This document shows, in pieces, positions 1-24,891 of a stretch of 29,612 bases of DNA (its first letter is position 1; every line of letters begins with the position of its first letter). The stretch lies in contig JBEQLE010000054.1 in the NCBI GenBank assembly GCA_040326155.1, forward strand, positions 1 to 29,612, written 5' to 3'. A program made the translations under genes and the position numbers. Under the pieces are notes generated by a model that made no database searches, was not told where the DNA came from, and saw nothing but the letters and a program-made list of their open reading frames with translations. Source of the DNA: Leptospirales bacterium. Lineage in GTDB: Bacteria > Spirochaetota > Leptospiria > Turneriellales > JAOUFE01.

Positions 1-97
1 GGGATCTGAAGCCGCACCTGAGCAAAGTGAAAGTTCTGGTGAATCTCAGGGATCAGAAAGTGAGAGCGAATCCGAAGAATATGGATATGGTTATTAG
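1..97 (+). CDS. 3' end of a CDS (partial): acidic Ser/Glu-rich tail ending ...SESESESEEYGYGY*
   Basis: Frame from nt 2 is open: GSEAAPEQSESSGESQGSESESESEEYGYGY, TAG at 95-97. It ends 23 nt before the next ATG on the same strand. Confidence 0.75.
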   Translation, partial: GSEAAPEQSESSGESQGSESESESEEYGYGY

Positions 98-120
98 GAG
101 AACCTAAAATTGATACAATT

Positions 121-1422
121 ATGAAACAAATAACAGTTTTTGAAGGTAATAAGTTACAAAACACGACACCGAATTTGGATGTCAGCGATCCGCGCTGTCT
201 TTTATACGGAGCCGATGGGGATGGTAAAAAGGTAGAACTCCCTGTAAGCGATGATTTACTAAGTAAGCATATGCTGTTTTTAGGCAGTATTGGCACAGGA
301 AAAACAAACGGAATTTTTCAAATTATCTCCCAGCTTAGAGGTAGTATGACGCCTAATGATGTGATGCTTATCTTCGATACTAAAGGCGATTTTTACGACG
401 CTTTTTACCAAAAGGGTGATATAGTAATAAGCAATGACGACAAAGCAACTGGCCCTAAAGGTAAAGATTACTGGAATATTTTTAACGAAATCGAGCTGGA
501 CAGCTCGATGGAAGAGAATATTATTGAAATTGCACGCGCCCTGTTTTATGAAAAAACGGAGCGATCAACTCAACCTTTTTTTCCAAATGCAGCTCGTGAT
601 ATTCTCACAGGGCTTTTGCTTCATTTTTGCCGGAAAGGGGATAAAACAAAGAATAATAACGATGAACTGCGTACTTTTCTGGACCGATCACCCTCAACTG
701 AAATAGTAGCGATTCTCCAACAACACGATGATCTAAAAGCCATGACTAGTTACATCGCCAATGAAAAATCTCCTCAAACACAAGGGATCATTTCCGAACT
801 ACAACAACTTATTAGAGAAATTCTGGTAGGGAATTTTCGCAAACCAGGGACATTGTCTATGCGACAATCTGTTCGAAACAAAGGCGGTAAAATAATATTT
901 ATTGAATATGACCTGGGAATTGGCGGTATGCTGACTCCCATATATCGTCTATTATTAGACATGGCGTTAAAGGAAGCCATGGGGCGAAAAAAGAGCGAAG
1001 GTAATGTCTGGTTTATTATTGACGAATTTCGTCTTATTCCTAACCTCCAGCACGTTGACAATGGTGTAAACTTTGGCCGTAGTTTAGGGGCAAAATTTAT
1101 TATCGGGGTGCAAAATGTTGAGCAGGTGTTTCATGCTTACGGAGAGTCTTTAGCGCGTAGTATTCTCTCGGGTTTTTCAACAACTGTAGCCTTCAAGGTG
1201 AACGATATTACTACTCGCAACTTTATTCAACAACTATTCGGCAAGAATCGAAAAAAAGAAGTTTATATGGCTTCAGTGCAATCTCGTGGAATCGTTGAAC
1301 AACTACGAGAGGCTAATGTTGTCGAAGATTGGGATATTTCTAATTTGCCTCTGGGACGGGCGATTATCTCCTTTCCAGAGAATGAACCCTTTTATTTCCA
1401 ATTTGATAAATTCAAGGAGTAA
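121..1422 (+). CDS. VirD4/TraD/TrwB-like (FtsK-HerA superfamily) P-loop ATPase with no N-terminal membrane anchor
   Basis: Walker A HMLFLGSIGTGKT, LIFDTKGDFY, WNIF, FFPNAA, Walker B WFIIDEF and GRSLG...GVQ motifs, all typical of T4SS coupling-protein nucleotide-binding domains. No hydrophobic segment is visible. Confidence 0.8.
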   Translation: MKQITVFEGNKLQNTTPNLDVSDPRCLLYGADGDGKKVELPVSDDLLSKHMLFLGSIGTGKTNGIFQIISQLRGSMTPNDVMLIFDTKGDFYDAFYQKGDIVISNDDKATGPKGKDYWNIFNEIELDSSMEENIIEIARALFYEKTERSTQPFFPNAARDILTGLLLHFCRKGDKTKNNNDELRTFLDRSPSTEIVAILQQHDDLKAMTSYIANEKSPQTQGIISELQQLIREILVGNFRKPGTLSMRQSVRNKGGKIIFIEYDLGIGGMLTPIYRLLLDMALKEAMGRKKSEGNVWFIIDEFRLIPNLQHVDNGVNFGRSLGAKFIIGVQNVEQVFHAYGESLARSILSGFSTTVAFKVNDITTRNFIQQLFGKNRKKEVYMASVQSRGIVEQLREANVVEDWDISNLPLGRAIISFPENEPFYFQFDKFKE

Positions 1423-1450: not shown

Positions 1451-1502
1451 AAACTTCAAACAAAAGTACCCTGCCCCTGGTTCGGTCGCATTCCGAACTA
1501 TA
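1451..1502 (+). repeat. 99-bp direct repeat, copy 1, left part (interrupted by IS21)
   Basis: aaacttcaaacaaaagtaccctgcccctggttcggtcgcattccgaactata matches 5810-5861 with 3 mismatches. Confidence 0.95.
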
Positions 1503-1507
1503 TAGAT

Positions 1508-1621
1508 ATTCCGGAAACATGTTGCCACTGATTCCGGAAACACCCTGCCACCCATTCCGGGTTTAACCTGCCACTGATTCCGGAAACACCTTGCCACCCA
1601 TTCCGGGATTATCCTGCCACT
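1508..1621 (+). repeat. IS21 left-end array: 5 tandem 22-bp units (ATTCCGG-N8-TGCCAC) at 23-bp period
   Basis: Units start at 1508, 1531, 1554, 1577 and 1600. Confidence 0.9.
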
Positions 1622-1696
1622 CTGGTAGCAGAAATTTCATTTATTGTCCATCAGCTAAAAACAATACTCTTGTTAGAGAAAAGGAGTATTGCAACA

Positions 1697-3271
1697 ATGA
1701 GGAGAATATCAATGAAGAATTTAAGAGAGATTATTCGGTTACATTCAGAATGCTGTATCGTGAGTTACAGAACTATCGCCAGAGCCACTAGAGTTTCTCG
1801 GCCAGTAGTAAGTCAATATTTGACCGACCTTAAAGCATCGGGCTTGAGTTATGCAGATATTCAGGACATGTCGGATGATAAACTATTGGAGATTTTCAAT
1901 CGCAATAGGGGCAAAAAGAATGAGCAGTATAGCATACTCGCTCGTCAGTTTGAATATTTCGGCAAGGAATTGAAACGGACCGGTGTCACGCTTCATCGCT
2001 TATGGGAAGAATACAAGGCCGACAAAATTGAATTCTACGGCTATTCACAATTTTGCTACCACTTTCAGGTCTGGCGAAGTGCCTCGGCAATCTCAATGCA
2101 CATAGAGCACAAAGCTGGCGATAAAATGTTTGTTGATTTTACGGGCAAAATGCTTACGGTAACCGATTCAATGTCCGGGGCACAGCAAGAGGTTGAGGTG
2201 TTCATAGGAATCCTTGGTGCCAGCCAGCTGACATATGTAGAAGCCGTGGAAACTCAGCAGAAAGACGACTGGATTAAAGTCAATTGTAATGCGTTTGAAT
2301 ATTTCGGGGGCGTCACTTTGGCGAGTGTCCCAGATAATTTAAAGTCCGCTGTGACAAAGGCTGACAAATATGAGCCCGATATAAACCCCGCCTACAATGA
2401 TTTTGCAAGACACTACGGGACAACGATTCTGCCAGCAAGAGTCTATAAACCGAAAGACAAAGCATTGGTAGAAAATTCAGTAAAGATTGTCTATGCATGG
2501 ATTTTCGCAGCGTTGAGAGACCGAACTTTTCACAACATTCAAGAGTTGAATCAGGCGATCTGGGAGGAGCTGGAAAAGTACAACAATAAACCGATGCAAC
2601 TTCTTAAGGTAAGCCGGCGGCAACTTTTCAATGAAATAGAGAAAGATACCTTAAAGCCATTACCGCTTCAACGCTACGAATTGAAATACTTCTCCCGTCT
2701 GAAAGTCCAACCCAATTACCATGTCCACCTTCGCGAAGACGGCAATTATTATAGCGTCCCTTACCGATACCGTTCGAAAACCGTGGAATTGATTTATTCA
2801 AGCTCTACAGTTGAAGTTTACTGCAATAACGTGCGGATAGCTCTTCACAAGAGGGTTAAAAACGGCAAAAAGTATTGCACGCTAAAAGAACATATGCCGG
2901 AAAATCACAAATGGGTGAGCGACTGGACTCCAGATCGATTTATCGAGTGGGCTCAGAAGATTGGTCCATTTGCCAAAGACCTTGTCGAAATAATTTTGAA
3001 TCGCCAGGGTCACCCCGAACAAGCCTATAAAGTTTGCTCGGGTATTCTAGGCCTCGCTAAAAAGTACGACGAGGAGCGTCTGAACAAAGCCTGTCGGCGG
3101 GCAATTTCCTTTGAGCATTATTCTTATAAGGGAATTCATAACATCCTCGACAACGGACTTGAAGAAATGGTCGGCGATGAGGCCGACCAATTGGCTTTAC
3201 CGGATCACGATAATGTTCGCGGCCAAACATATTACCAAGGAGATCACAATGAACAATCAGGCAACAATTGA
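1697..3271 (+). CDS. istA: IS21 transposase IstA (DDE)
   Basis: RISMKNLREIIRL N-terminus, YGYSQFC, HKAGDKMFVDF, VPDNLKSAV, PARVYKPKDKALVE, NYYSVPY and HDNVRGQTYY. ATG at 1697 follows AAGGAG; ATG at 1712 is an alternative start. Confidence 0.95.
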   Translation: MRRISMKNLREIIRLHSECCIVSYRTIARATRVSRPVVSQYLTDLKASGLSYADIQDMSDDKLLEIFNRNRGKKNEQYSILARQFEYFGKELKRTGVTLHRLWEEYKADKIEFYGYSQFCYHFQVWRSASAISMHIEHKAGDKMFVDFTGKMLTVTDSMSGAQQEVEVFIGILGASQLTYVEAVETQQKDDWIKVNCNAFEYFGGVTLASVPDNLKSAVTKADKYEPDINPAYNDFARHYGTTILPARVYKPKDKALVENSVKIVYAWIFAALRDRTFHNIQELNQAIWEELEKYNNKPMQLLKVSRRQLFNEIEKDTLKPLPLQRYELKYFSRLKVQPNYHVHLREDGNYYSVPYRYRSKTVELIYSSSTVEVYCNNVRIALHKRVKNGKKYCTLKEHMPENHKWVSDWTPDRFIEWAQKIGPFAKDLVEIILNRQGHPEQAYKVCSGILGLAKKYDEERLNKACRRAISFEHYSYKGIHNILDNGLEEMVGDEADQLALPDHDNVRGQTYYQGDHNEQSGNN

Positions 3272-3980
3272 AAAAATGAGTTTACTGAAATTACACGGAA
3301 TGCAACGGATATTCAAAGCGTTGTTAGAAACAGGTAATAGCGACATGACCACCGACGAGGTGATCGGTTCAATGATCGATGCGGAGTGGGATGAAAGGTA
3401 TAACCGCAAACTTTCCCGGTTATTGAAGGCGGCCAAATTTCGCTACCAGGCGTCGCTGGAAGAAATCGATTTTTCGAGTCAACGGCGAATAGATAAAAAT
3501 GAACTACTACGATTAGCAACCTGCGACTGGATGAAAAAAGGGGACAGCCTGATCGTTACTGGCGCAACAGGTGTCGGTAAAAGTTTTATAGCGTGTGCCT
3601 TGGGGAGTCAGGCTTGCAAAGAAGGATTTACAGTATTATACTTCAATTGCTTAAAGCTTTTTTCGCAGTTAAAATTTGCAAAAGCCGATGGCAGTTATTT
3701 CAAAGAAATGTCCAGACTTCGAAAACAAGACCTGCTAATTTTGGATGATTTTGGTCTAGAGCCACCGGATGCACAATCAAGATTAATCTTGCTGGAAATC
3801 CTTGAAGACAGGCATGGTCGAAAATCGACCATGATTACATCACAACTCCCAGAAAATAAATGGCATGACTTCATTGGGGAGCCAACAATTGCCGATGCCA
3901 TTTGCGACAGGATTATTCACAAATCATATAAAATAATTTTAAAAGGAGAATCTATGCGGAAAAATAACGTTAATTCTTGA
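3249..3980 (+). CDS. istB: IS21 helper ATPase IstB
   Basis: GATGVGKS Walker A, LLILDDFG Walker B, TSQLP..W and ADAICDRI. GGAG RBS precedes ATG 3249, which overlaps the istA end. Confidence 0.95.
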   Translation: MNNQATIEKMSLLKLHGMQRIFKALLETGNSDMTTDEVIGSMIDAEWDERYNRKLSRLLKAAKFRYQASLEEIDFSSQRRIDKNELLRLATCDWMKKGDSLIVTGATGVGKSFIACALGSQACKEGFTVLYFNCLKLFSQLKFAKADGSYFKEMSRLRKQDLLILDDFGLEPPDAQSRLILLEILEDRHGRKSTMITSQLPENKWHDFIGEPTIADAICDRIIHKSYKIILKGESMRKNNVNS

Positions 3981-3992
3981 CGCGATCGGATG

Positions 3993-4118
3993 ATTCCGGA
4001 ATTATCCTGCCACTACAGAAAAAACAAACAATGGATTAATAAATGAAATAATAATGGCTCTTACAACTCGGGAAAGTGGCAACATGTTTCCGGAATGGGT
4101 GGCAGAATGTACCGGAAT
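3993..4118. repeat. IS21 right-end repeats: one direct-orientation unit (3993-4014) and two inverted units (4075-4096, 4098-4118)
   Basis: 4075-4096 is the exact reverse complement of 1508-1529. 3993-4014 reads attccggaattatcctgccact. Confidence 0.88.
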
Positions 4119-4128
4119 ATCCACTATA

Positions 4129-4175
4129 TACCAATCGAATGAAATACCTTTACAATTCGAGTATACCGCTCTCGT
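4129..4175 (+). repeat. 99-bp direct repeat, copy 1, right part
   Basis: taccaatcgaatgaaatacctttacaattcgagtataccgctctcgt matches 5862-5908 with 1 mismatch. Confidence 0.95.
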
Positions 4176-4419
4176 AAACCAGTCGGTGCAAACAATATAA
4201 ATGCGGAAATATCGCTAGAAAAATTCCGTGTTTATTCGAATGACCATAGTAAATATTTAGAATTGTCATGGCATAAGTGGTGTGAATTTGCTTACCTATT
4301 GGTTGTTTGTCAGCAGCTTTTGCAATTGTGCAATTGTGCAATTTATTATTTTTGTTCTTTCTTCAAAAGTGATTTGTTGGACAGGGGGGCTGGGTAGTTA
4401 TTGCTCAGGCTTTCAATAT

Positions 4420-4911
4420 TCACCTGCGTCTTTTCGCCTTTGCTGGTTCTTTAAGATTCGTAATATTTATTCTGTTTAAACTGTTTTTTATGTGAATTTT
4501 TTGAGTATAATTATAATGTTTAGAGCTACATATTTTTTCATATACAGAATTTAATATACTAAGATTTAAGTTTCCTTTTACAGCTATTTGCTTTGACTCT
4601 ATTTTCTCTATCACAGTCTCTAAAAGTTCAGACTTCGGCGGGAAGTCAAAGTCTATCAAACATTCTTCGTCAAACCCTATGTCTGCATGGTTATCCATGA
4701 ATCTAATTATTGAATTAGAACTTCGGTCCCCATAGTTTTCATAATATTGAAATTGAGTAGTAGTTTTTACCAGTAATAGGGATGTTGGGCCATTAATAGT
4801 ACCCGTATCACCTAGCACAATAAACCAGAATGGTTTTAATTTGCTATTAGCATCACTTGGATTCTCGTAACTGTTCCATTTTATTACAGACCCTGATTGC
4901 AAATTCGACAC
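4420..4911 (-). CDS. Putative toxin, divergent PemK/MazF-like
   Basis: GSVIKW...KPFWFIVLG...LLLVKTTTQ resembles the PemK-like strand pattern. Its GTG start directly abuts the TAA of the Panacea gene. Confidence 0.5.
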   Translation of the reverse strand: MSNLQSGSVIKWNSYENPSDANSKLKPFWFIVLGDTGTINGPTSLLLVKTTTQFQYYENYGDRSSNSIIRFMDNHADIGFDEECLIDFDFPPKSELLETVIEKIESKQIAVKGNLNLSILNSVYEKICSSKHYNYTQKIHIKNSLNRINITNLKEPAKAKRRR

Positions 4912-5460
4912 TTACAGGCTTACTGCTTCAAAATGCTCTTTGATTATTTCATTAGAATGTTCAATTTCGTCGGATATATACATCTTTTCTGATAACTTAT
5001 TGGCTGGCCTTCTTTCGTGCCAAGCTTTTTTCCATGATTTTAACTCATGGGTTGCATTTATAAGGTCAGTATTCCTTCTATAATTTGTAGCAAATCTATC
5101 TATTAAGTCATAGATTTTTTCTATTTCGTATTCACTGAAATTATCTAAATTATAGTCTGCATTATTGGGAATAAACTTTATCTGCTCCGATGTATTACCT
5201 TCTATAATTTCCAGGTCTACATTATCATTGTCATACTCACCATTAACAATTAGCGAGTTCAGATTAACCGGAACCGGCCCTTTTTCCCAAGCAAGATATT
5301 CTAAATTTAACGGAGGATGGCCTGTTTCTTTTAATATCTCAAATTCAAATAAATCTATATATTTAAACAATGACGTTTTAAATAAGCATTTACCAGAAAT
5401 TATTTTATGTTCGACGGATAAAGTGTGTATAAGATCGTCTAATTTAGCTGTGGTTGACAT
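4912..5460 (-). CDS. Panacea-domain (DUF4065/SocA/GepA) antitoxin
   Basis: KTSLFKYIDLFEF..LKETGHP...YLAWEKGPVP and LINATH...SW motifs. The start is reassigned to ATG 5460 (MSTTAK). Confidence 0.8.
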   Translation of the reverse strand: MSTTAKLDDLIHTLSVEHKIISGKCLFKTSLFKYIDLFEFEILKETGHPPLNLEYLAWEKGPVPVNLNSLIVNGEYDNDNVDLEIIEGNTSEQIKFIPNNADYNLDNFSEYEIEKIYDLIDRFATNYRRNTDLINATHELKSWKKAWHERRPANKLSEKMYISDEIEHSNEIIKEHFEAVSL

Positions 5461-5809
5461 AGTCGCCCCATTCCCCTGTCCATCGTAATAAAAAACACTA
5501 GACAAGTACCTACCTATATAGACGTCTAGGCGACATAAAATGTAAACACTTTTTTTGTAAAAAACGATACAAAAGTAGTACAATATGTAAAGTACTTAAA
5601 TGATTTTTTCATGTGTGATGTCATTTCCCATATGTTAGAGTATAATATTTTTAATATTGAATTGCATTGTATGTTCTCCCTATATCCATGTTGTGTTTTC
5701 CAAACCTATGGAACTTTCTGGCTCTGTTGTGTCGTTGTTGTTGTTCGGATGATCACTACGAATATTACCCAAAAGATTGAATACCTCTATTCTATTTTTT
5801 TGTAACCTG

Positions 5810-5908
5810 AAACTTCAAACTAAAGTACCCTGCCCCTACTTCGGTCGCATTCCGAACTATATACCAATCGAATGAAATACCTTTACAATTCGAGAATACC
5901 GCTCTCGT
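5810..5908 (+). repeat. 99-bp direct repeat, copy 2 (intact), 25 nt downstream of the argH stop
   Basis: 95/99 identical to the rejoined copy 1. Internal hairpins are TTCGG-N7-CCGAA and CGAGA-N7-TCTCG. Confidence 0.95.
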
Positions 5909-5933
5909 GGACGGCCTGATTCTTACTCTTTTT

Positions 5934-7346
5934 TTAAATTTCTGTTTTCATCGCTTCGAGAATTTTTTCAGCTTTGGCAAATTGTTCTTGTACGGACTTG
6001 TTCGAAGTGCAGCCGGTTCCTTGTTTTCTATCGATGCAATTTTCCAACTTGAGCATTCCTTCGGGCAGGCTGTATTCTGCGCCCCAGATCGATTCAATAT
6101 CAGTCTGCGTGAGTTCATCGAGGTATTTACCCTCTTTTTCGCAAAACACGACGGCCTTGCCGGACATTTCGTGAGCCACCCGAAAAGGAACTTTATAGTC
6201 ACTGACAAGATAGTCGGCAATTTCCGTAGCTTGTGCAAAACCCTTACGAAGATTTTTGACGACTTTTTCGGGGTGAAAAGTTACATTCGATATTATTTCT
6301 TTCATGCCGAGAATGCCCAGAGCGCTCTGTCTGACCGTATCAAACAAGTAAATTTTATCTTCTTGCAGGTCTCGATTGTAGGTAAGCGGCAACCCTTTCA
6401 AGTTTACCAAAAGAGCATTCATGTTACCTGAAACCCGGCCGGTTTTACCGCGTAAAAGTTCTGCTATATCGGGATTTTTTTTCTGTGGCATAATGGACGA
6501 ACCCGTTGTTACCGAGTCCCCCATCGATATATACGAAAACTCTGTAGAATTATACAAAATGAAATCTTCACACATTCTGGAAATATGCAAGTATAACCGA
6601 ACGGTAAAAAAATGATAGCTGAGTTGGTAATCTCTGGTGGAAACCGCGTCCATACTGTTATTATACACTTTGGAAAAACCAAGCTCTTTTGCAACAAATT
6701 CTCGATCAATTGGATAGTTAGCTCCGGCCATTGCCGCTGCACCTAAAGGCGAAGTGTCAGTTTCAGCCAGAGAAAAATCGAGCAGGTTGTAATCTCTCTG
6801 GAACATCCAGAAGTAGGACATTAAATAATGACTGAGCAGTACCGGTTGGGCAATTTGCGTGTGTGTATAACCCGCCCAGATGGTTCCGGCGTTATCTTTT
6901 GCCAGTTGTAATAGTCGCTCTAAAAGAGCAATCATCAGCTCTTTTTGTTCAACGATATTCTCTTTTAGAAACAGGTGAGTGTCTACGGCGACCTGGTCAT
7001 TTCGCGAGCGCCCGGTGTGTAAAAACTTACCCTCTTCGCCGATAATTTCAACCAGACGTTTTTCAATATGGGTATGAATGTCTTCCAGCGCGGGGTCAAA
7101 GTTCATTTTCCCCTGGTCGATTTCACCTTCAATCTGCCCGAGCCCTTTTACTATTTTATCGATGACATCGTCGGCAACAATTTTCTGCCGAGACAACATG
7201 CGAGCATGCGCTATGGAAGCTCGAATGTCCTGTTTATAAATTACTTTATCGAAACTGATCGATTCAGAGATGGTTTCACTAATTTTTGAAACCCCCTCTT
7301 GAAATCGCCCTCCCCAGAGTTTTGCCGGGGTACCTTCATTTTCCAT
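5934..7346 (-). CDS. argH: Argininosuccinate lyase
   Basis: KLWGGRF, EDIH, LHTGRSRNDQ, GYTHTQIAQP, GSSIMPQKKNPD and YNRDLQEDK. Start taken as ATG 7346 (MENEG). Confidence 0.97.
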   Translation of the reverse strand: MENEGTPAKLWGGRFQEGVSKISETISESISFDKVIYKQDIRASIAHARMLSRQKIVADDVIDKIVKGLGQIEGEIDQGKMNFDPALEDIHTHIEKRLVEIIGEEGKFLHTGRSRNDQVAVDTHLFLKENIVEQKELMIALLERLLQLAKDNAGTIWAGYTHTQIAQPVLLSHYLMSYFWMFQRDYNLLDFSLAETDTSPLGAAAMAGANYPIDREFVAKELGFSKVYNNSMDAVSTRDYQLSYHFFTVRLYLHISRMCEDFILYNSTEFSYISMGDSVTTGSSIMPQKKNPDIAELLRGKTGRVSGNMNALLVNLKGLPLTYNRDLQEDKIYLFDTVRQSALGILGMKEIISNVTFHPEKVVKNLRKGFAQATEIADYLVSDYKVPFRVAHEMSGKAVVFCEKEGKYLDELTQTDIESIWGAEYSLPEGMLKLENCIDRKQGTGCTSNKSVQEQFAKAEKILEAMKTEI

Positions 7347-7469
7347 AAGAGGTAAATTCAAAATAAAAGCAACCGTGTAAAGGAGATAAGTATGCGAAAC
7401 GTAATAGTCGAGTATAAAGTCAAACCAGACCAGTTTTGTTCTAAACGGTCCTTCCCTACACATTAAAAA

Positions 7470-9309: not shown

Positions 9310-12300
9310 ATGAGAAAAAAGAACCAGAGCATTCAAACTTATATTAAAACAATAAGCGTTGTTATTTTAATAGTAATAACAGCCAGCATTGTTGTATGGT
9401 ACTGGAATGTGAAATCAGAAAATGTTCTAACGACAAGACAAATTGAGTATAATCTGGTTTCGCTGCACAATATATCTGAGATAAATCAACAGATTCGGAA
9501 AATCCGGATTCATGAGCTTGACCATTCTCTTCAAACACAAAAGCCCGCACCTGATACGCATACGTTTAATTGGGATGAAGTAATCTATGAATTGAATCAT
9601 CTCCTTAAAAAATCCAATAAGCTGATCAAATTGTATGATGATGGGTCTATCTATGATACCAATCGTAGATTAAATTCTGCTTATCAAAAATTTTATAATA
9701 AAATTATTAATTCAAAACAACAGAACTTCATTCAATATGAATATATAAAAATAGAGCTGGAAGAATTTCAACTTGTTTTGCGACAATTCGAAATACTGCA
9801 CAGCATAGATCTTAACGAGACCGAAAAATTATTGAAAATTAATAATGAAAATCGTCCCCTTTATTTACTTGCATTTTTTGTTTTGATCATTCTCCCGAGT
9901 ATTGCATTCGTTAAATATTTATACGGGCATATCGGTACAATTTTAGTTGAACAAAATACATTACAAAAACATATTTCTGAGTTGAACGCAAAACTTGAAA
10001 AACGTGTTTTACTGCGAACGAGGGAACTAACGGAAAGTCAAGATCAACTTAAACTAATAATCAATACAGCTGCTGATGCAATAATCACAATGAATAATGA
10101 CGGAACGATATTATCTTTCAATAAAGCGGCAGAAAAACTTTTTTTCTGGCAAGAAAATAAAATAATTGGGAAAAAAATTAATCTTATTGTGGAAGGATCT
10201 GATTCCTGGTTCAATAAAAAAAAGAAAAACTCCGAAATTGATAGGTATGAAGCAATCGGTATTCGAAAAAAGAAAACTAAATTCCCAATATATTATTCAT
10301 TGGGACAGACAATAATAAACAATAATATAATTTATACCGCATTAATATATGATCTAACAGAACGAAAAAAAGCTGAAAATGATTTACTGGATAGTGAAAC
10401 AAGATTAATTAAAGCGCAGAAAATAGCGCATTTGGGAAGTATGGAATGGGATTTCGATAAAGATCAACAAGTATGGTCAGAAGAATTGTATCATATTTTT
10501 AATATTCCAGTAGAAAATACAAACCCTACGATAGAAGATTTGTTGTCAATGGTAATACAAGATGACCTTGCATTGGTTAAAAAAACAATCAGTAAAAACG
10601 CAAAATCTTCTACTTCATTTAATATTGAATTTGGTCTTTTAAGAACAGACAGTACTATTAGAACAATACATTCACAGGGTAAATTAATTTCTAGCAGTAA
10701 TAAAGCACCGTCAAAAATGTCCGCAATTTTCCAGGATATTAGTGAATTGAAAAGTATACAGTCAGAACTCGAGAATGCCAAAATTATGGCTGAATCTGCA
10801 AACATTGCAAAATCGCAATTTCTAGCGAACATGAGCCATGAAATTAGAACTCCCATGAATTCAATTCTTGGTTTTATCGATTTATCTCTTGAATCAAGCC
10901 AGTTAAATGATAGAATTCGGGCAAATTTAACTATCGCAAATCGTTCTGCAAAAAGTCTGCTGGTTCTAATTGACGATATTCTGGATACCAGTAAACTTGA
11001 AGCAGGAAAACTGGAAATTGAGATACAAAAATATCATTTACCCAGGTTATTAAAGGATGTTATACAAACACTTAAATTAAAATCAGATGAAAAAGCGGTA
11101 CAATTGAACCTTGATGTGCAGCATGATATTTATCATTGTTTTATCGGAGATCCAAACAGAATACGTCAGATTTTAACGAACCTGGTTGGTAATGCCATTA
11201 AATTTACTAAAAAAGGGGTGGTAAGTTTATCAGTAATACAAATTAAAAATAACTATTTAGAATTTAAAATTACCGATACCGGAATTGGTATGACTCCGCA
11301 TCAACTAAAAACTATATTCCAGCCATTTAAACAGGGTGACCAGACAACTGCACGCCGATATGGAGGAAGCGGCCTGGGAACAACGATTAGCAAACAATTA
11401 GTTAAACTAATGGGTGGTAAAATATGGGCGAAAAGTAAACCGAATAACGGGAGTACCTTTTATTTTACATTGAAACAGGAAACACCAAGCTGTCTTTCCG
11501 ATTGTTCCCTGGATTGCGAGGACCATGGATATCCGGGGGAAATTTTACTGCCCCAGTCAAAACGATCTTTTAAAATTTTATTGGCCGAAGATATTCCTGA
11601 AAATGCCGCATTGGCTACACTTCGATTGGAACAGCAAAACCACTCCATTGATACCTGTGTCAACGGACGAGAAGCTCTAGAATTATTTAAAAAACGACAA
11701 TACGACATTATACTCATGGATATTCAGATGCCGATTATGGATGGTAACGAAGCAACTCAACGAATAAGAGCTATGGAAGCTAAAGCTAAAACGAAAACTC
11801 ATATACCGATTATTGCGCTTACGGCCAGTGTTATGGAAAGTGATAAACGCAAATGCATTGAAGCAGGAGTTGATATTATTATCGAAAAACCAATCGATTT
11901 TGGAAGACTTTTTAGGACAATGGAGGAACTCGCAACTAAAAGTAGCGGTGTTTATCGAAAGCAAATAGGTGTCGATATAAAAGATAAAAAATTTGATCTT
12001 CCTGATAAAATGGAAGGTATAAATGTTGAAAAGGGTATCCGTATATGGTTAAACTATGAAGAATATAGCCAATCTTTATTGAGTTACTCTCAACATTATA
12101 AGAAAGCTCCCACTAAACTGAAACAATATATTGATGCTAATAAATTTGAAGAAGCTTATTCTTTAATTCATGCTCTTAAAGGTGTATCCGGAAATCTTTC
12201 CATCGAGGACGTTGCAAGCACGGCAATAAAATTAGATTTATTGATTAAAAAAAAGGAAGTAGATAATATCAATAAATTACTTCCTGTACTTTCCAAACAA

Positions 12301-21177: not shown

Positions 21178-24100
21178 ATGTTTAGAAAAAAGAAAAAGAA
21201 AAAAATAGTTGAAGAAGTTGAAAGCAAGGAAGTCGAGTACTCGGATGATGAGCTCGGTATTATTAAAGAGCTGTTAACCGACTTCGAAAAAGCCCCCGGT
21301 CAAGTCGATATGGATCTCGACGAAACTGAAGAAGAGAAACCGGAGGCCATACCTGAAGCCGCCGAAGAAATTAGCGCCCCACCGACCGAGACACCATCGG
21401 GAATGGAAGAATTCGATGATCTTCTGGATATCGACAGTCTGGATGAAGTCAAGGTCGCAGAAACCGAACCCCAACCCGAACCAGAACCGGCAGCGGACGA
21501 AGCGCCTGCAATCGACGAAAATACCGAAATTGTAGATGTCGGCGATCTAGATGACCTTCTTCCTGACGATACAGCCGAACCAGAACCGGCGCCAACAGAA
21601 CCCGGCTTAGATTTAGACAGCGTTATAGATAATATAGAAGAAACTGAACTCAATTTACCATCCGACGACCAAACAGACACGGACATAGATGCACCTGTAG
21701 AGGGAGCAGAACCAGATTTAGACATAGACCTCGACGATATACCAACAGATACGGTTGAACCCGATGCAGGCATAGATCTTGATATGCCAACGGATACGGC
21801 GGAACCTGATTTAGACATAGATCTCGATAATATACCAACGGATACAGCTGAACCCGATTTGGACATTGATCTCGATACGCCAACAGATACGACTGAACCC
21901 GATTTGGACATTGATCTCGATAATATACCAACGGATACGGCGGAACCCGACCTGGGCATAGATCTCGATATGCCAACGGATACGGCTGAACCCGATTTGG
22001 ACATTGATCTCGATACGCCAACAGATACGGCGGAACCCGACTTGGGCATAGACCTCGATACGCCAACGGATACTGCGGAACCCGACTTGGGCATAGACCT
22101 CGATACGCCAACAGATACGGATGAACCCGACCTGGGCATGGACTTCGATACGCCAACGGATGCAGCTGAACCCGACCTGGGCATGGACTTCGATATGCCA
22201 ACGGATACTGCGGAACCCGACTTGGGCATAGACCTCGATACGCCAACAGATACGGATGAACCCGATCTAGGCATGGACATGTCGGGGCCCTTAGATGCAG
22301 GAATCGATGACATGGGGCCTCCCTCACTGGATGAGTTATCTCCCGAACTGGCCGTTCAATCCCCAAAATCATCAAGTATGGATTTAAGTTCGGAGTTATC
22401 TGAACTTGCAATGGAACATACAGCCGAAATACCGCAAGAAGATTTAAACACACTTAGACGAAACCTGAAAGGGTTTACCCCACCCGTTCGCCAGGCTGTT
22501 ATTGAAACTATATTAAATAATAAACTGCAGAAAAGTCAGAATGAAGAACTCATTCGTAAAATAGTTTCTGGAGCGGCTGAAGCTGATGTAAAAGAGTTTA
22601 TAGAAGCAAACCTTGATCTTAAATTATCAGATTTAATTCCTAAAGCCGAGGTGGCGCGAAAAGTCATCGTTTCCAGACCCCAGTATTCCGAAAGAGGGCT
22701 GCAGCGTCAGGCCAAGTTTCTAAAACTTTCTAAATACGCAGTTATTGCAGCGCTTGCGCTAACCATTATTGGAAGCGCCAGTTGGATAATAGGTATTAAA
22801 AAATATCTATATAAAAAGAGTATTTCAAATGGCGTTGATATAATTCGACTTAAAACGGATGGTTCGATAGATAAAGCGGAAGATTTTTTTCAGGACGCTG
22901 TTGCATACTATCCGAACAAGTCTGAAGCCTACCTGCGTTTTGCCGAAGCTTACCGCCTCATGGGTAAATATGATCAGGCGTTTGAAAAACTTTTCGGTAA
23001 AATTAAACTGGTACCCGAAAGTAAAAGAGCTATTCGATACAGTGGGCGAGAGATCTCAAAAAATGACAAACTGTTTTTTCAAATAATCAAGCAAGTGCCT
23101 ATCATTTCATATGAGATAGAATCGGGAAAGAAAGTAATTGTCCCGCAGCAAAGTTCCCTTTTAAGCGGTGTTTTTACCTGGATGTTTGGCGAAAATATAG
23201 AAGAAAATGAAAAAATTCTTATTATGAATGGGCTTAGGTGGAAAGTCGAAAAAGAGGGAGCCTATATTATTACTCACCTCCGAAATCAAAAAGATGAATC
23301 ACTTGTACTGCATGCTCTCGGAACGTTTCATTCGAGTCCGGCTTCAAGTTTCGCAAGTTCAATTTACAGAAATAATCAACTTGGTATTGCCTACTTCCAG
23401 AGAATGTTGAATTTTGAAACAGCCTCCCCTACTTTCCAAAAAGAGGATTATTTAAGTAAAGCCGTCTTAGGAATTGGAAATGTTTATTATAACCAGGGCG
23501 ATTACGATAAAGCTCATGACTACTTCGATAAAATACGGCGCAAAGACCCTAAAAACGTTGATGCACAAAGTGGTTTAATGCGCACACTAATAAAAATTTA
23601 CTCGCAAACTGACGACCCTAGAATGATTATTCAACAACACAGTAAAATAAAACATACATTAGATATAGAAGACGAACTGCCTTTGCATATACAGGCAAAA
23701 CTTGCCGAGTTCTATATTAACCTGCCCGAAGGCGAAAACCTGAGAATGCAATATAATGTTTCTCCTATTGATAAAGTAAACAATAGAACGTTGAAAAGTA
23801 GAGCCGAAGACCTTTTAGGTCTGATATTTAACAACACAGAAAAAGATATCTATGGAAACACCAAAGAAGGTAAAACTTTTGCGGAGGGGTATTACCAGCG
23901 AGGACGCTATTATCGATATGTAGTAAAAGAAGTTCGAATGGCGATGACACAGTTTGAATATGCCGTTAAATATAATCCGAATCACTATATGGCGCTGAAT
24001 GACCGTGCAGAAATTTTAATAGAACTTCACGACTACAGACAGGCCCAACAATACTTGACACAGGCAATTGCTATTATGGAAGCCAAGAACAATTTGACAA

Positions 24101-24891
24101 ACCTGGGCGACCATCCTGAGGACGAAACACTCATTGATGCAGATATTGGAAAAGTATATTTCAATATGGGTAAATCAATGTACCTTTCTAAAGTTATACA
24201 TCTTGATACGAACGCAGACCGGTTTCGCATAAACGAAATTAGTAAGTACAATACAGCGACAGAATCGAACAAAAACGCTTTGTTTGCCCAGCTCGCGAAA
24301 ACAAACTACTTTTTTAAAAAAGCAGCTCAGGTTGGGGTTAAAAATGATCAGGTTAGAGCTGAACTCGATTATTACCGTGGCTGGTATCACTATGTAAATA
24401 ATGAATACAGAGAAGCTCTATTTCATTGGCAATCTATTGAACAAAAATGGGATAAGAAATATTCCAACCTTGAATTGGCAAAATCGTTTGCATTGTATAA
24501 CCTGGCCCGTGGAAACGAAAATGATAGAAAAAAACTTTTAAGCATGGCCCTGGGTCACCTTGTTTACATTCATAAACAATTAACACCCCGCGCCGCCCAC
24601 ATAGGAAATATTCGTCTAGCCAATATGGAGCATGTTATGCTTTATACCAAACTATCTATTGTAGAAAATAATATTGGGGCGATCTTTGAGATGATGGGAA
24701 ATGAAAATGAAAAAGAGGCTCTCGACCATTACTGGAAATCGGTTGAGTATGCTAATAAAATATCGCGGGAAAATGAAATCGCCCGTATGAACATTCGACT
24801 GGGTTTTAAACGCAAAGGTTTAGAACCAAAAGAGAAACATCCATTAATTATGGATTTTGTCTCCCCCTACCTCCAGGATCAATCACTTTGA
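21178..24891 (+). CDS. flcA: FlcA-like spirochaete periplasmic flagellar collar protein (acidic N-terminus, one TM, TPRs)
   Basis: Long acidic cytoplasmic region, LRRNLKGFTPPVRQAV segment, single TM and multiple TPR motifs. The call rests on architecture. Confidence 0.55.
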   Translation: MFRKKKKKKIVEEVESKEVEYSDDELGIIKELLTDFEKAPGQVDMDLDETEEEKPEAIPEAAEEISAPPTETPSGMEEFDDLLDIDSLDEVKVAETEPQPEPEPAADEAPAIDENTEIVDVGDLDDLLPDDTAEPEPAPTEPGLDLDSVIDNIEETELNLPSDDQTDTDIDAPVEGAEPDLDIDLDDIPTDTVEPDAGIDLDMPTDTAEPDLDIDLDNIPTDTAEPDLDIDLDTPTDTTEPDLDIDLDNIPTDTAEPDLGIDLDMPTDTAEPDLDIDLDTPTDTAEPDLGIDLDTPTDTAEPDLGIDLDTPTDTDEPDLGMDFDTPTDAAEPDLGMDFDMPTDTAEPDLGIDLDTPTDTDEPDLGMDMSGPLDAGIDDMGPPSLDELSPELAVQSPKSSSMDLSSELSELAMEHTAEIPQEDLNTLRRNLKGFTPPVRQAVIETILNNKLQKSQNEELIRKIVSGAAEADVKEFIEANLDLKLSDLIPKAEVARKVIVSRPQYSERGLQRQAKFLKLSKYAVIAALALTIIGSASWIIGIKKYLYKKSISNGVDIIRLKTDGSIDKAEDFFQDAVAYYPNKSEAYLRFAEAYRLMGKYDQAFEKLFGKIKLVPESKRAIRYSGREISKNDKLFFQIIKQVPIISYEIESGKKVIVPQQSSLLSGVFTWMFGENIEENEKILIMNGLRWKVEKEGAYIITHLRNQKDESLVLHALGTFHSSPASSFASSIYRNNQLGIAYFQRMLNFETASPTFQKEDYLSKAVLGIGNVYYNQGDYDKAHDYFDKIRRKDPKNVDAQSGLMRTLIKIYSQTDDPRMIIQQHSKIKHTLDIEDELPLHIQAKLAEFYINLPEGENLRMQYNVSPIDKVNNRTLKSRAEDLLGLIFNNTEKDIYGNTKEGKTFAEGYYQRGRYYRYVVKEVRMAMTQFEYAVKYNPNHYMALNDRAEILIELHDYRQAQQYLTQAIAIMEAKNNLTNLGDHPEDETLIDADIGKVYFNMGKSMYLSKVIHLDTNADRFRINEISKYNTATESNKNALFAQLAKTNYFFKKAAQVGVKNDQVRAELDYYRGWYHYVNNEYREALFHWQSIEQKWDKKYSNLELAKSFALYNLARGNENDRKKLLSMALGHLVYIHKQLTPRAAHIGNIRLANMEHVMLYTKLSIVENNIGAIFEMMGNENEKEALDHYWKSVEYANKISRENEIARMNIRLGFKRKGLEPKEKHPLIMDFVSPYLQDQSL
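21706..22281 (+). repeat. Intragenic tandem repeat: 13 units of 45/48 nt encoding about DTAEPDLGIDLDTPT
   Basis: 13 EPD-containing units counted in the translation; DNA unit is about gatacggcggaacccgacttgggcatagacctcgatacgccaaca. Confidence 0.93.

Follow-up and report, generated by a model that had tools for sequence, protein, structure and literature searches.

Copies and islands at argH

Why should a 99-bp sequence recur on either side of a small gene pair next to argH? The question is raised by a 29,612-nucleotide stretch of a Leptospirales bacterium genome (GCA_040326155.1, contig JBEQLE010000054.1, positions 1 to 29,612; the window), in which one copy adjoins argH and a second, split by an insertion sequence, lies to its left. 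A first-pass annotation read the pair as attachment (att)-like sites of a cassette-accretion system at argH. Here we find that the repeat is one of about 100 oriented elements of about 120 nt. They form a family with a defined polarity, they persist while the cargo beside them changes, and near-identical direct copies surround islands of unshared DNA. We propose, at a probability of roughly 45%, that the elements are integration sites at which a tyrosine recombinase, supplied in trans, joins DNA to the 5' side.

The intact window element lies on the plus strand at 5809..5925, adjoining the argH stop codon (profile match E 3e-25; covariance model match at 5800-5934, 115.9 bits). The truncated copy to its left, hereafter the middle copy, is also on the plus strand. 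Its left half (1451..1502) is separated by an IS21-family element (1503..4123, plus strand, with IstA-like and IstB genes) from a segment at 4124..4175 that holds a second target-duplication copy and the right half, and stops just before the 3' arm of a long-range helix. The duplication is 5 bp, CTATA, at 1498-1502 and 4124-4128. As first annotated, 1451-1502 joined to 4129-4175 shares 95 of 99 positions with 5810-5908, and beyond either end the similarity is lost; none of 200 shuffled windows held any 20-mer repeat more than 200 bp apart. The 99-bp block proved shorter than the full unit. The family unit continues to about 5925, and the 3' helix arm (5912-5916), missing from the middle copy, therefore falls just outside the block.

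argH itself (5934..7406, minus strand; TIGR00838 above cut-off) has an orthologue in G001, a relative used as reference. There, a reductase gene lies about 5 bp from argH with no element. In the window's genome (G000) at least 11.4 kb separate the two, and none of the eight scored open reading frames (ORFs) in the interval, the IS21 gene included, has a G001 orthologue. Since the reductase abuts argH in G001, at least 11 kb came in at argH in G000. The suggestion that a VirD4-like module on the left is a further cassette, with another repeat beyond it, was borne out. A third copy lies at C97:40081-40199 on a second contig and carries about 45 bp of the argH 3' end. The 207-bp block at 5771..5976 (plus strand; 40 bp of flank, element and argH 3' end) recurs at 91.8% identity near C97:40045-40250. 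Left of the C97 copy are a 476-aa gene of low guanine plus cytosine (GC) content and then host genes ending in the reductase. The end of C97 and the start of the window both fall inside an open low-complexity ORF, in the same orientation and without overlap. From left to right, the argH region would then consist of host genes and cargo 1, an element, the five-gene VirD4-like module, the truncated element with its IS21, the toxin-antitoxin pair and a last element beside argH: an accretion of three modules, absent from G001. A relative with a single repeat at an otherwise empty argH site, which the first-pass annotation had named as a check, was not found, and G001 has no repeat there.

At argH alone, conventional islands might instead have targeted the 3' end of the gene, the element being a passenger in a long identity block. 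The C97 copy followed by argH sequence resembles a classic displaced fragment and suits this account. However, the middle copy carries no argH sequence, the duplications on C81, C83 and L247/L254 (below) are centred on the element beside different genes, and the genome-wide polarity is left unexplained; we regard the account as very improbable.

The repeat is a dispersed family

The unit is not private to argH. BLAST with the 99-mer matched dozens of contigs, and a two-motif scan found 67 sites in the genome against 4 in a shuffled genome. A profile search of G000 gave 107 matches at E up to 0.01 (best reversed-genome match, E 0.55), or 101 elements once split halves were merged, and a covariance model built from 27 copies gave 81 matches. 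The same kind of model search found no element in 40 relatives, and pattern scans returned chance matches only, all lacking the 3' arm, at 28 loci in GTDB representatives and at 1 locus in viral contigs. A metagenome scan yielded 51 loci, 29 with a full element and 26 of these from a single assembly, whose flanks are about 77% identical to G000 and which represents a sister species; the L-numbered loci below include contigs of this species. The lineage is one of spirochaetes, in line with a match to a Leptospira-type lipoprotein. No Rfam 15 covariance model matched at its gathering score, and at E values up to 5 the window copies had no match; an Rfam search of 16 other copies gave nothing credible at E up to 10. 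Dozens of randomly scattered copies had been named in advance as the mark of an ordinary repeat. About 100 copies do exist, but their placement is not random, and the att-like idea therefore survives in a genome-wide form.

Polarity of the flanking genes

The elements were compared with G001, of which 2.67 of about 3.2 Mb was available, the missing tiles hiding orthologues on both sides alike. Genes were present on both sides of 75 of the 78 strong elements. A G001 orthologue lay on the 3' side only at 26 of these, on the 5' side only at 6, on both at 5 and on neither at 38 (p 5e-4). The excess remained with one element counted per island (23 vs 6 of 66) and recurred at the 14 sister-species loci long enough to score (3' only 7, 5' only 1, both 5, neither 1). 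GC content was lower on the 5' flank in 70 of 92 elements (0.374 vs 0.406, p 3e-6). Four other intervals with elements measure 445, 169, 127 and 1103 bp in G001 and 8777, 1948, 2042 and 17230 bp in G000, respectively. NCBIfam was applied to a subset of neighbours (42 of 44 3' ORFs and 46 of the 69 listed 5' ORFs, with differing E cut-offs); 3' neighbours include argH, smpB, efp, tig, prfC, typA, metG, mfd, pth and radA, and 5' neighbours are mostly unnamed, toxin-antitoxin or Fic genes. No polarity was seen in four of the five control repeat families. The fifth showed 12 vs 2, with significance lost (7 vs 2) after 12 copies near an element were dropped.

The polarity holds whatever the direction of the 3' gene, the elements are oriented independently of both the reading direction of adjacent genes and strand skew, and no replication-strand bias was seen (30 vs 25). 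These results bear on an alternative that takes the element for a structured repeat, selfish or domesticated, or for a small RNA, of the BOX, SPRITE or REP kind. Foreign DNA on one side would then be an indirect effect, for example of a host protein or transcript shielding the 3' neighbour, and the island duplicates would come from homologous recombination. Around 100 intergenic, genus-restricted copies in modular arrays recall the pneumococcal repeats (PMC3049150). An orientation indifferent to neighbouring genes and strand skew, and control repeats that are not polar, speak against it. The fold of the element bears on both sides of this account.

Anatomy and fold of the element

The argH element consists of an A-rich left arm, a dyad, a core (5842-5916) and a T-rich tail. 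The dyad (5836..5860, not assigned to a strand) has a 9-7-9 layout, with arms ending in CGG and starting with CCG around a 7-nt spacer. All three short inverted repeats listed for the 99-bp unit are present in the window, but only this CGG-N7-CCG repeat is family-wide, the other two lying outside the consensus. Base frequencies in the dyad are symmetric in the consensus and the arms do not covary, which ruled out CGG-N7-CCG as a selected local stem.

The conserved pairing is long-range. A 5' arm, GGTnG, at 5843..5847 pairs with a 3' arm, Cn'GCC, at 5912..5916, about 65 nt away (both on the plus strand). The variable bases n and n' are Watson-Crick partners in 76 of 80 G000 copies vs 29.7 in shuffles, and in 97 of 99 copies with the sister species included (36.6 expected; the set is 102 G000 and sister-species copies minus 3 near-duplicates). 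On a rough tree this pair has undergone at least 35 changes, and it never uses G.T. The pair beside it is T.G in 93 of the 99 copies, so the plus strand is the folded strand. The only supported helices are one of 5 bp (99% paired) and a weak one of 4 bp (70% paired), unlike the end-to-end attC hairpin with its R box, L box, unpaired spacer and extrahelical bases. An invariant unpaired motif, TACCTTTAC, lies at 5878..5886 (plus strand), and an optional hairpin can sit just 5' of it; its presence in 15 of 102 copies suggests that spacing matters in the single-stranded state. Folding the window 99-mer, a check proposed with the first annotation, gave a result no better than shuffles (z about -1.6). 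Taken with compensatory changes between species (below), the complementarity in 97 of 99 copies and the 35 or more changes indicate that the fold is probably under selection at fixed sites.

Covariation, a strand-favouring T.G pair, an optional hairpin and a T-rich tail are all typical of RNA motifs and thus agree with the structured repeat or small RNA considered above. On the other side, the variable pair is never G.T, no terminator-like site was found in the element, and there is no built-in promoter in the left arm: the window has one sigma-70-like site, but family-wide the count is 2 of 105 vs a control of 2.2. This also ruled out an outward promoter as the function of the left arm. Overall we hold the structured repeat or RNA to be quite unlikely. 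Short-peptide coding was ruled out by 1-nt differences in the spacing of the blocks.

Other modules join the element at the CGGT of the 5' arm. In 5 of 12 profile hits, a second hairpin module of about 67 nt, itself starting with CGGT, is attached there, singly or in tandem. Tandem hairpin modules precede the element at C154:17062-17194, C81:13469-13535, L235:3617-3751, L247, L254 and L270. At C44:46170 and C81:37722 this hairpin leads into the 3' arm of the element, which suggests that the two belong to a modular super-family. The optional-hairpin slot is filled by GTAG-type REP-like hairpins at C96:39792, C119:13425, C125:18920, C138:33062 and C144:3984. The consensus left arm is GTAG-like, but an assignment to REP/REPIN was rejected, as the dyad arms do not covary and no intact RAYT is present. 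The attC ends RYYYAAC/GTTRRRY occur nowhere in 5761-5960 on either strand, nor in the family consensus, and no tRNA or tmRNA was found in the window, both in agreement with the first-pass annotation.

Persistence, turnover and paired copies

At 11 sites the element is present in both species in the same orientation. In 7 of these 11 orthologous pairs, similarity continues into the 3' gene and stops at the element's left edge (alignments read by eye), and n:n' has changed in a compensatory manner in 2 of the 9 pairs scored. A twelfth aligned pair, L238/C83, is not orthologous and stands outside the 11. Twelve sister-species sites have no full element in G000, one being a deleted remnant, and one interval carries the element in opposite orientations in the two species. 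Persistence at orthologous sites, together with these absences and flips, indicates that the family persists under selection and turns over.

Such turnover could also reflect a one-ended mobile unit, of the rolling-circle or peel-and-paste type, with the element as its fixed end. It would arrive with the 5' cargo and insert its 3' end against host genes, and the cargo would later decay or be replaced. The same polarity data fit this account. The argH site of G001, with neither cargo nor element, fits it as an element-free empty site, as do the 12 sister-species sites and the inverted one. Copies related to each other are found at unrelated sites and are alike only over a unit of about 130 bp, and a strand-specific fold that tolerates an optional hairpin is like single-stranded substrates. 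However, no IS200/IS605 (Y1) transposase or TnpB matched in G000 and no intact RAYT was found there (no PF01797 match; a broken fragment on C89, 614-781, lies below cut-off). No shared motif was found at the far end of the cargo, and the elements persist and stay complementary across about 77% nucleotide identity, which a spent transposon end should not do. We consider the one-ended unit unlikely. A transposon with inverted elements as its two ends was rejected, the 12 inward-facing pairs not being each other's closest copies. As to the features of a MITE, the consensus has no terminal inverted repeats, and the ends of the element are fuzzy in related pairs.

Near-identical direct pairs surround DNA without G001 orthologues in the window (argH), on C81 (panC, 3.4 kb) and on C83 (27 kb). 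In the sister species, the near-identical copies L247 and L254, on separate contigs, flank a 314-aa tyrosine recombinase and cargo by synteny with C141. Breakpoints fall at the helix arms: hairpin modules join at CGGT, the C81 block starts at CGGT, and the middle copy ends beside the 3' arm. A cassette insertion at CGGT that leaves left halves at the far end of the cargo was ruled out, as such halves were not found.

Several features of the islands are of interest in themselves. The C83 interval (C83:94503-121747) holds a 27-kb contractile-injection-like cluster, with sheath, tube and baseplate-like ORFs recognized by eye, between copies that are 95% identical. The C81 island contains a duplicate of 144 bp from the panC 3' end (C81:8055-8198 and 9864-10007), a second displaced fragment at that locus. 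A multicopy gene of 187 aa (L245:1227-1790, L257:1492-2055), with about 19 paralogues in G000, variable orientation and no Pfam match, is often found in accessory DNA beside the element and near several sister-species copies.

Candidate recombinases

G000, which is 94.7% complete, encodes four tyrosine recombinases, all below the TIGR02249 integron-integrase cut-off. XerC- and XerD-like genes lie on C83 and C106. The 314-aa enzyme (C141:12602-13546, L062, and L247) belongs to an element-bounded island upstream of ssb. One sister-species copy of the element lies just before the gene, and its G000 orthologue is in an island ending at the matching site. Its catalytic motifs are present, its DNA is 86% identical between the two species vs a background of about 77%, and a close match at E 1e-70 occurs in 1 of 400 other spirochaete genomes.

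No large serine recombinase matched in G000. Two group II intron reverse transcriptases (RTs) were considered as mobilisers and rejected, since neither adjoins a full element; one belongs to an apparently whole intron at C142:17210-19832 (L064), and the other is a fragment at C157:1-560 (L065). Of the four tyrosine recombinases, the IntI-like one, below the integron-integrase cut-off, lies at a contig end (C12:8247-9305, L061). Hairpins resembling attC on C106 (9035, 10643) and C155 form a separate repeat system.

A proposed integration mechanism

A host gene on the 3' side with swapped foreign genes on the 5' side makes integration the likely role of the elements. In its layout, a symmetric dyad with a spacer of 7 nt, the element matches the core sites of tyrosine recombinases. 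This layout, the likeness to folded sites, the placement of copies as at islands in tRNA genes (tDNA) and the breakpoints at helix arms together point to oriented integration sites served in trans. In the proposed mechanism, a protein dimer would read the 9-7-9 dyad. The plus strand would fold in the manner of single-stranded recombination sites, bringing the dyad spacer into pairing with the distant 3' arm, and strand exchange would occur at both arms of the helix. A circle with its own copy of the site would integrate and restore an intact element beside the host gene, leaving a displaced and often decaying copy at the far end of the cargo. At argH, at least two such events would give the three copies and three cargo modules; the middle copy may then have lost its 3' arm before receiving the IS21 insertion.

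A number of observations weigh against this mechanism. Unshared genes lie on both sides at 38 of 75 elements, and several elements have no cargo. The duplicated blocks vary in length (99, 114, 131 and 207 bp), unlike the product of one fixed crossover; such variation fits RecA-type events and hence the structured repeat or RNA. The 207-bp block reaches into argH, as it would if an ordinary island had targeted the 3' end of that gene. The element appears in only 4 of the 52 non-coding direct-repeat rows of the genome, candidate orphan left halves at the far end of cargo number 6 vs 4 expected by chance, and no empty site with a single element copy was found. C97 and the window contig (C121) do not overlap, so that their adjacency is inferred from the open ORFs of like orientation at their ends. 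Among the enzymes, the 314-aa recombinase belongs to a widespread group (7153 matches), no element was found beside two of its distant homologues, and none of the enzymes is tied to the element by more than one locus. No integrase was found in the argH, C81 or C83 islands, the sister species offering one probable case.

The att-like sites first proposed for argH therefore stand in part: the repeats do mark junctions of acquired DNA, but they are not specific to argH, and no recombinase was found there. A broader reading of integration in trans is distributed gene capture, in which about 100 folded-DNA pads beside housekeeping genes and a single tyrosine recombinase would allow one-sided addition of toxin-antitoxin, defence and 27-kb modules. 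Such a system would correspond to an integron spread over the whole chromosome, built on a site with no relation to attC, dif or tRNA. We find it conceivable but doubtful.

Cargo and other features of the window

DNA between the middle copy and the intact element is AT-rich, as first noted (32.8% GC vs 39.6% for the genome). It carries a Panacea (SocA-like) antitoxin gene (4912..5460, minus strand; PF13274, E 2.8e-10) without a G001 orthologue and an abutting 163-aa gene (4420..4911, minus strand). The earlier label of a toxin-antitoxin cassette holds for the antitoxin. The 163-aa gene has no Pfam or PADLOC match; its place beside the antitoxin, with a weak lead to PemK (rank 30, 11% of members), makes it a putative, likely toxin.

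Positions 1..1422 (plus strand) are the end of the five-gene cargo module, with the end of the low-complexity ORF and a TrwB/VirD4-like ATPase; the module likely begins on C97. As a whole (L053:7488-10642 plus window 1-1422) it encodes two membrane proteins whose N-termini look weakly GRAM-like, a small protein, a putative metallopeptidase ending in a low-complexity tail, and the ATPase, with no relaxase or channel genes. Elsewhere, tandem repeats of 45 bp and 93 bp lie at 21600-22330 within a 1237-aa ORF (21178-24891).

Comparison with known systems

These comparisons rest on the accessible portions of the cited papers. In its working, the element may be most like Neisseria dRS3/NIME as hypothesised in PMC1797815. 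Both are dispersed intergenic repeats at syntenic positions with modular, dynamic arrays, and dRS3 copies were proposed as recombinase sites for exchange with incoming DNA, a phage integrating into dRS3 (PMC1797815). However, dRS3 is a symmetric 20-bp inverted repeat, whereas the element is about 120 nt long and asymmetric, with a long-range covarying helix and a strict polarity between core and cargo; no sequence likeness was seen.

Islands targeted to tDNA (Islander, PMC4383910) likewise have an intact target beside the host, a displaced far fragment, tandem accretion and, in the element's case, a likely tyrosine recombinase. The restored target and displaced fragment in direct orientation recur at the window pair, the C97 pair, C81 and C83. 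The element differs from such islands, as described there, in being a non-tRNA target of about 100 copies, in block lengths that vary and in that most islets have no integrase. The attC sites of integrons and CALIN arrays are, like the element, folded in a strand-specific way and present in many diverged copies; both go with short cargo, toxin-antitoxin pairs for example, and with the absence of a nearby integrase (PMC5027507, PMC4889954). Unlike attC in those accounts, the element has no R-box ends, long hairpin or IntI above cut-off, its sites are single and scattered beside housekeeping genes, and its cargo genes more often read away from the site.

The folded attP of CTX phage and the pdif sites of Acinetobacter resemble the element in having a dyad with a short spacer, a distant inverted half that pairs in single-stranded DNA and, as would hold for the element under the proposed mechanism, a host recombinase acting in trans; pdif modules also have direct and inverted bounding sites and toxin-antitoxin cargo (PMC4246890, PMC13141974). 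In these sources, dif and pdif are 28 bp with an 11-6-11 layout, present as one dif or as plasmid sites, against 9-7-9 and about 100 chromosomal copies for the element. The BOX, RUP and SPRITE repeats (PMC3049150) and Treponema TD-1/TD-2 (PMC1950547) are similar as lineage-restricted structured repeats with modular stems, about half of them at conserved sites. The accessible text of these reports gives no link to flanking gene class or acquired DNA, whereas the link of the element is oriented and strong. Judged by its sequence features, the element appears to fail the defining tests of attC, pdif, tDNA att sites, REP/RAYT and Rfam 15 families. No published description of such a family was found by title or abstract start, a search with subscription papers and supplements outside its scope. 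New here are the polarity, the orthologous persistence with cargo turnover and the link to island pairs.

Significance

The mechanism behind most gene-acquisition hotspots is not visible, and few small dispersed repeats have a known function. In two species, one repeat family predicts where, and on which side, foreign genes enter the chromosome. If a tyrosine recombinase does act on the elements, they would represent a new class of structure-defined att site and a route for islets that lack an integrase. If no such enzyme acts, there is still a clear pattern in the one-sided association of acquired DNA with a folded repeat.

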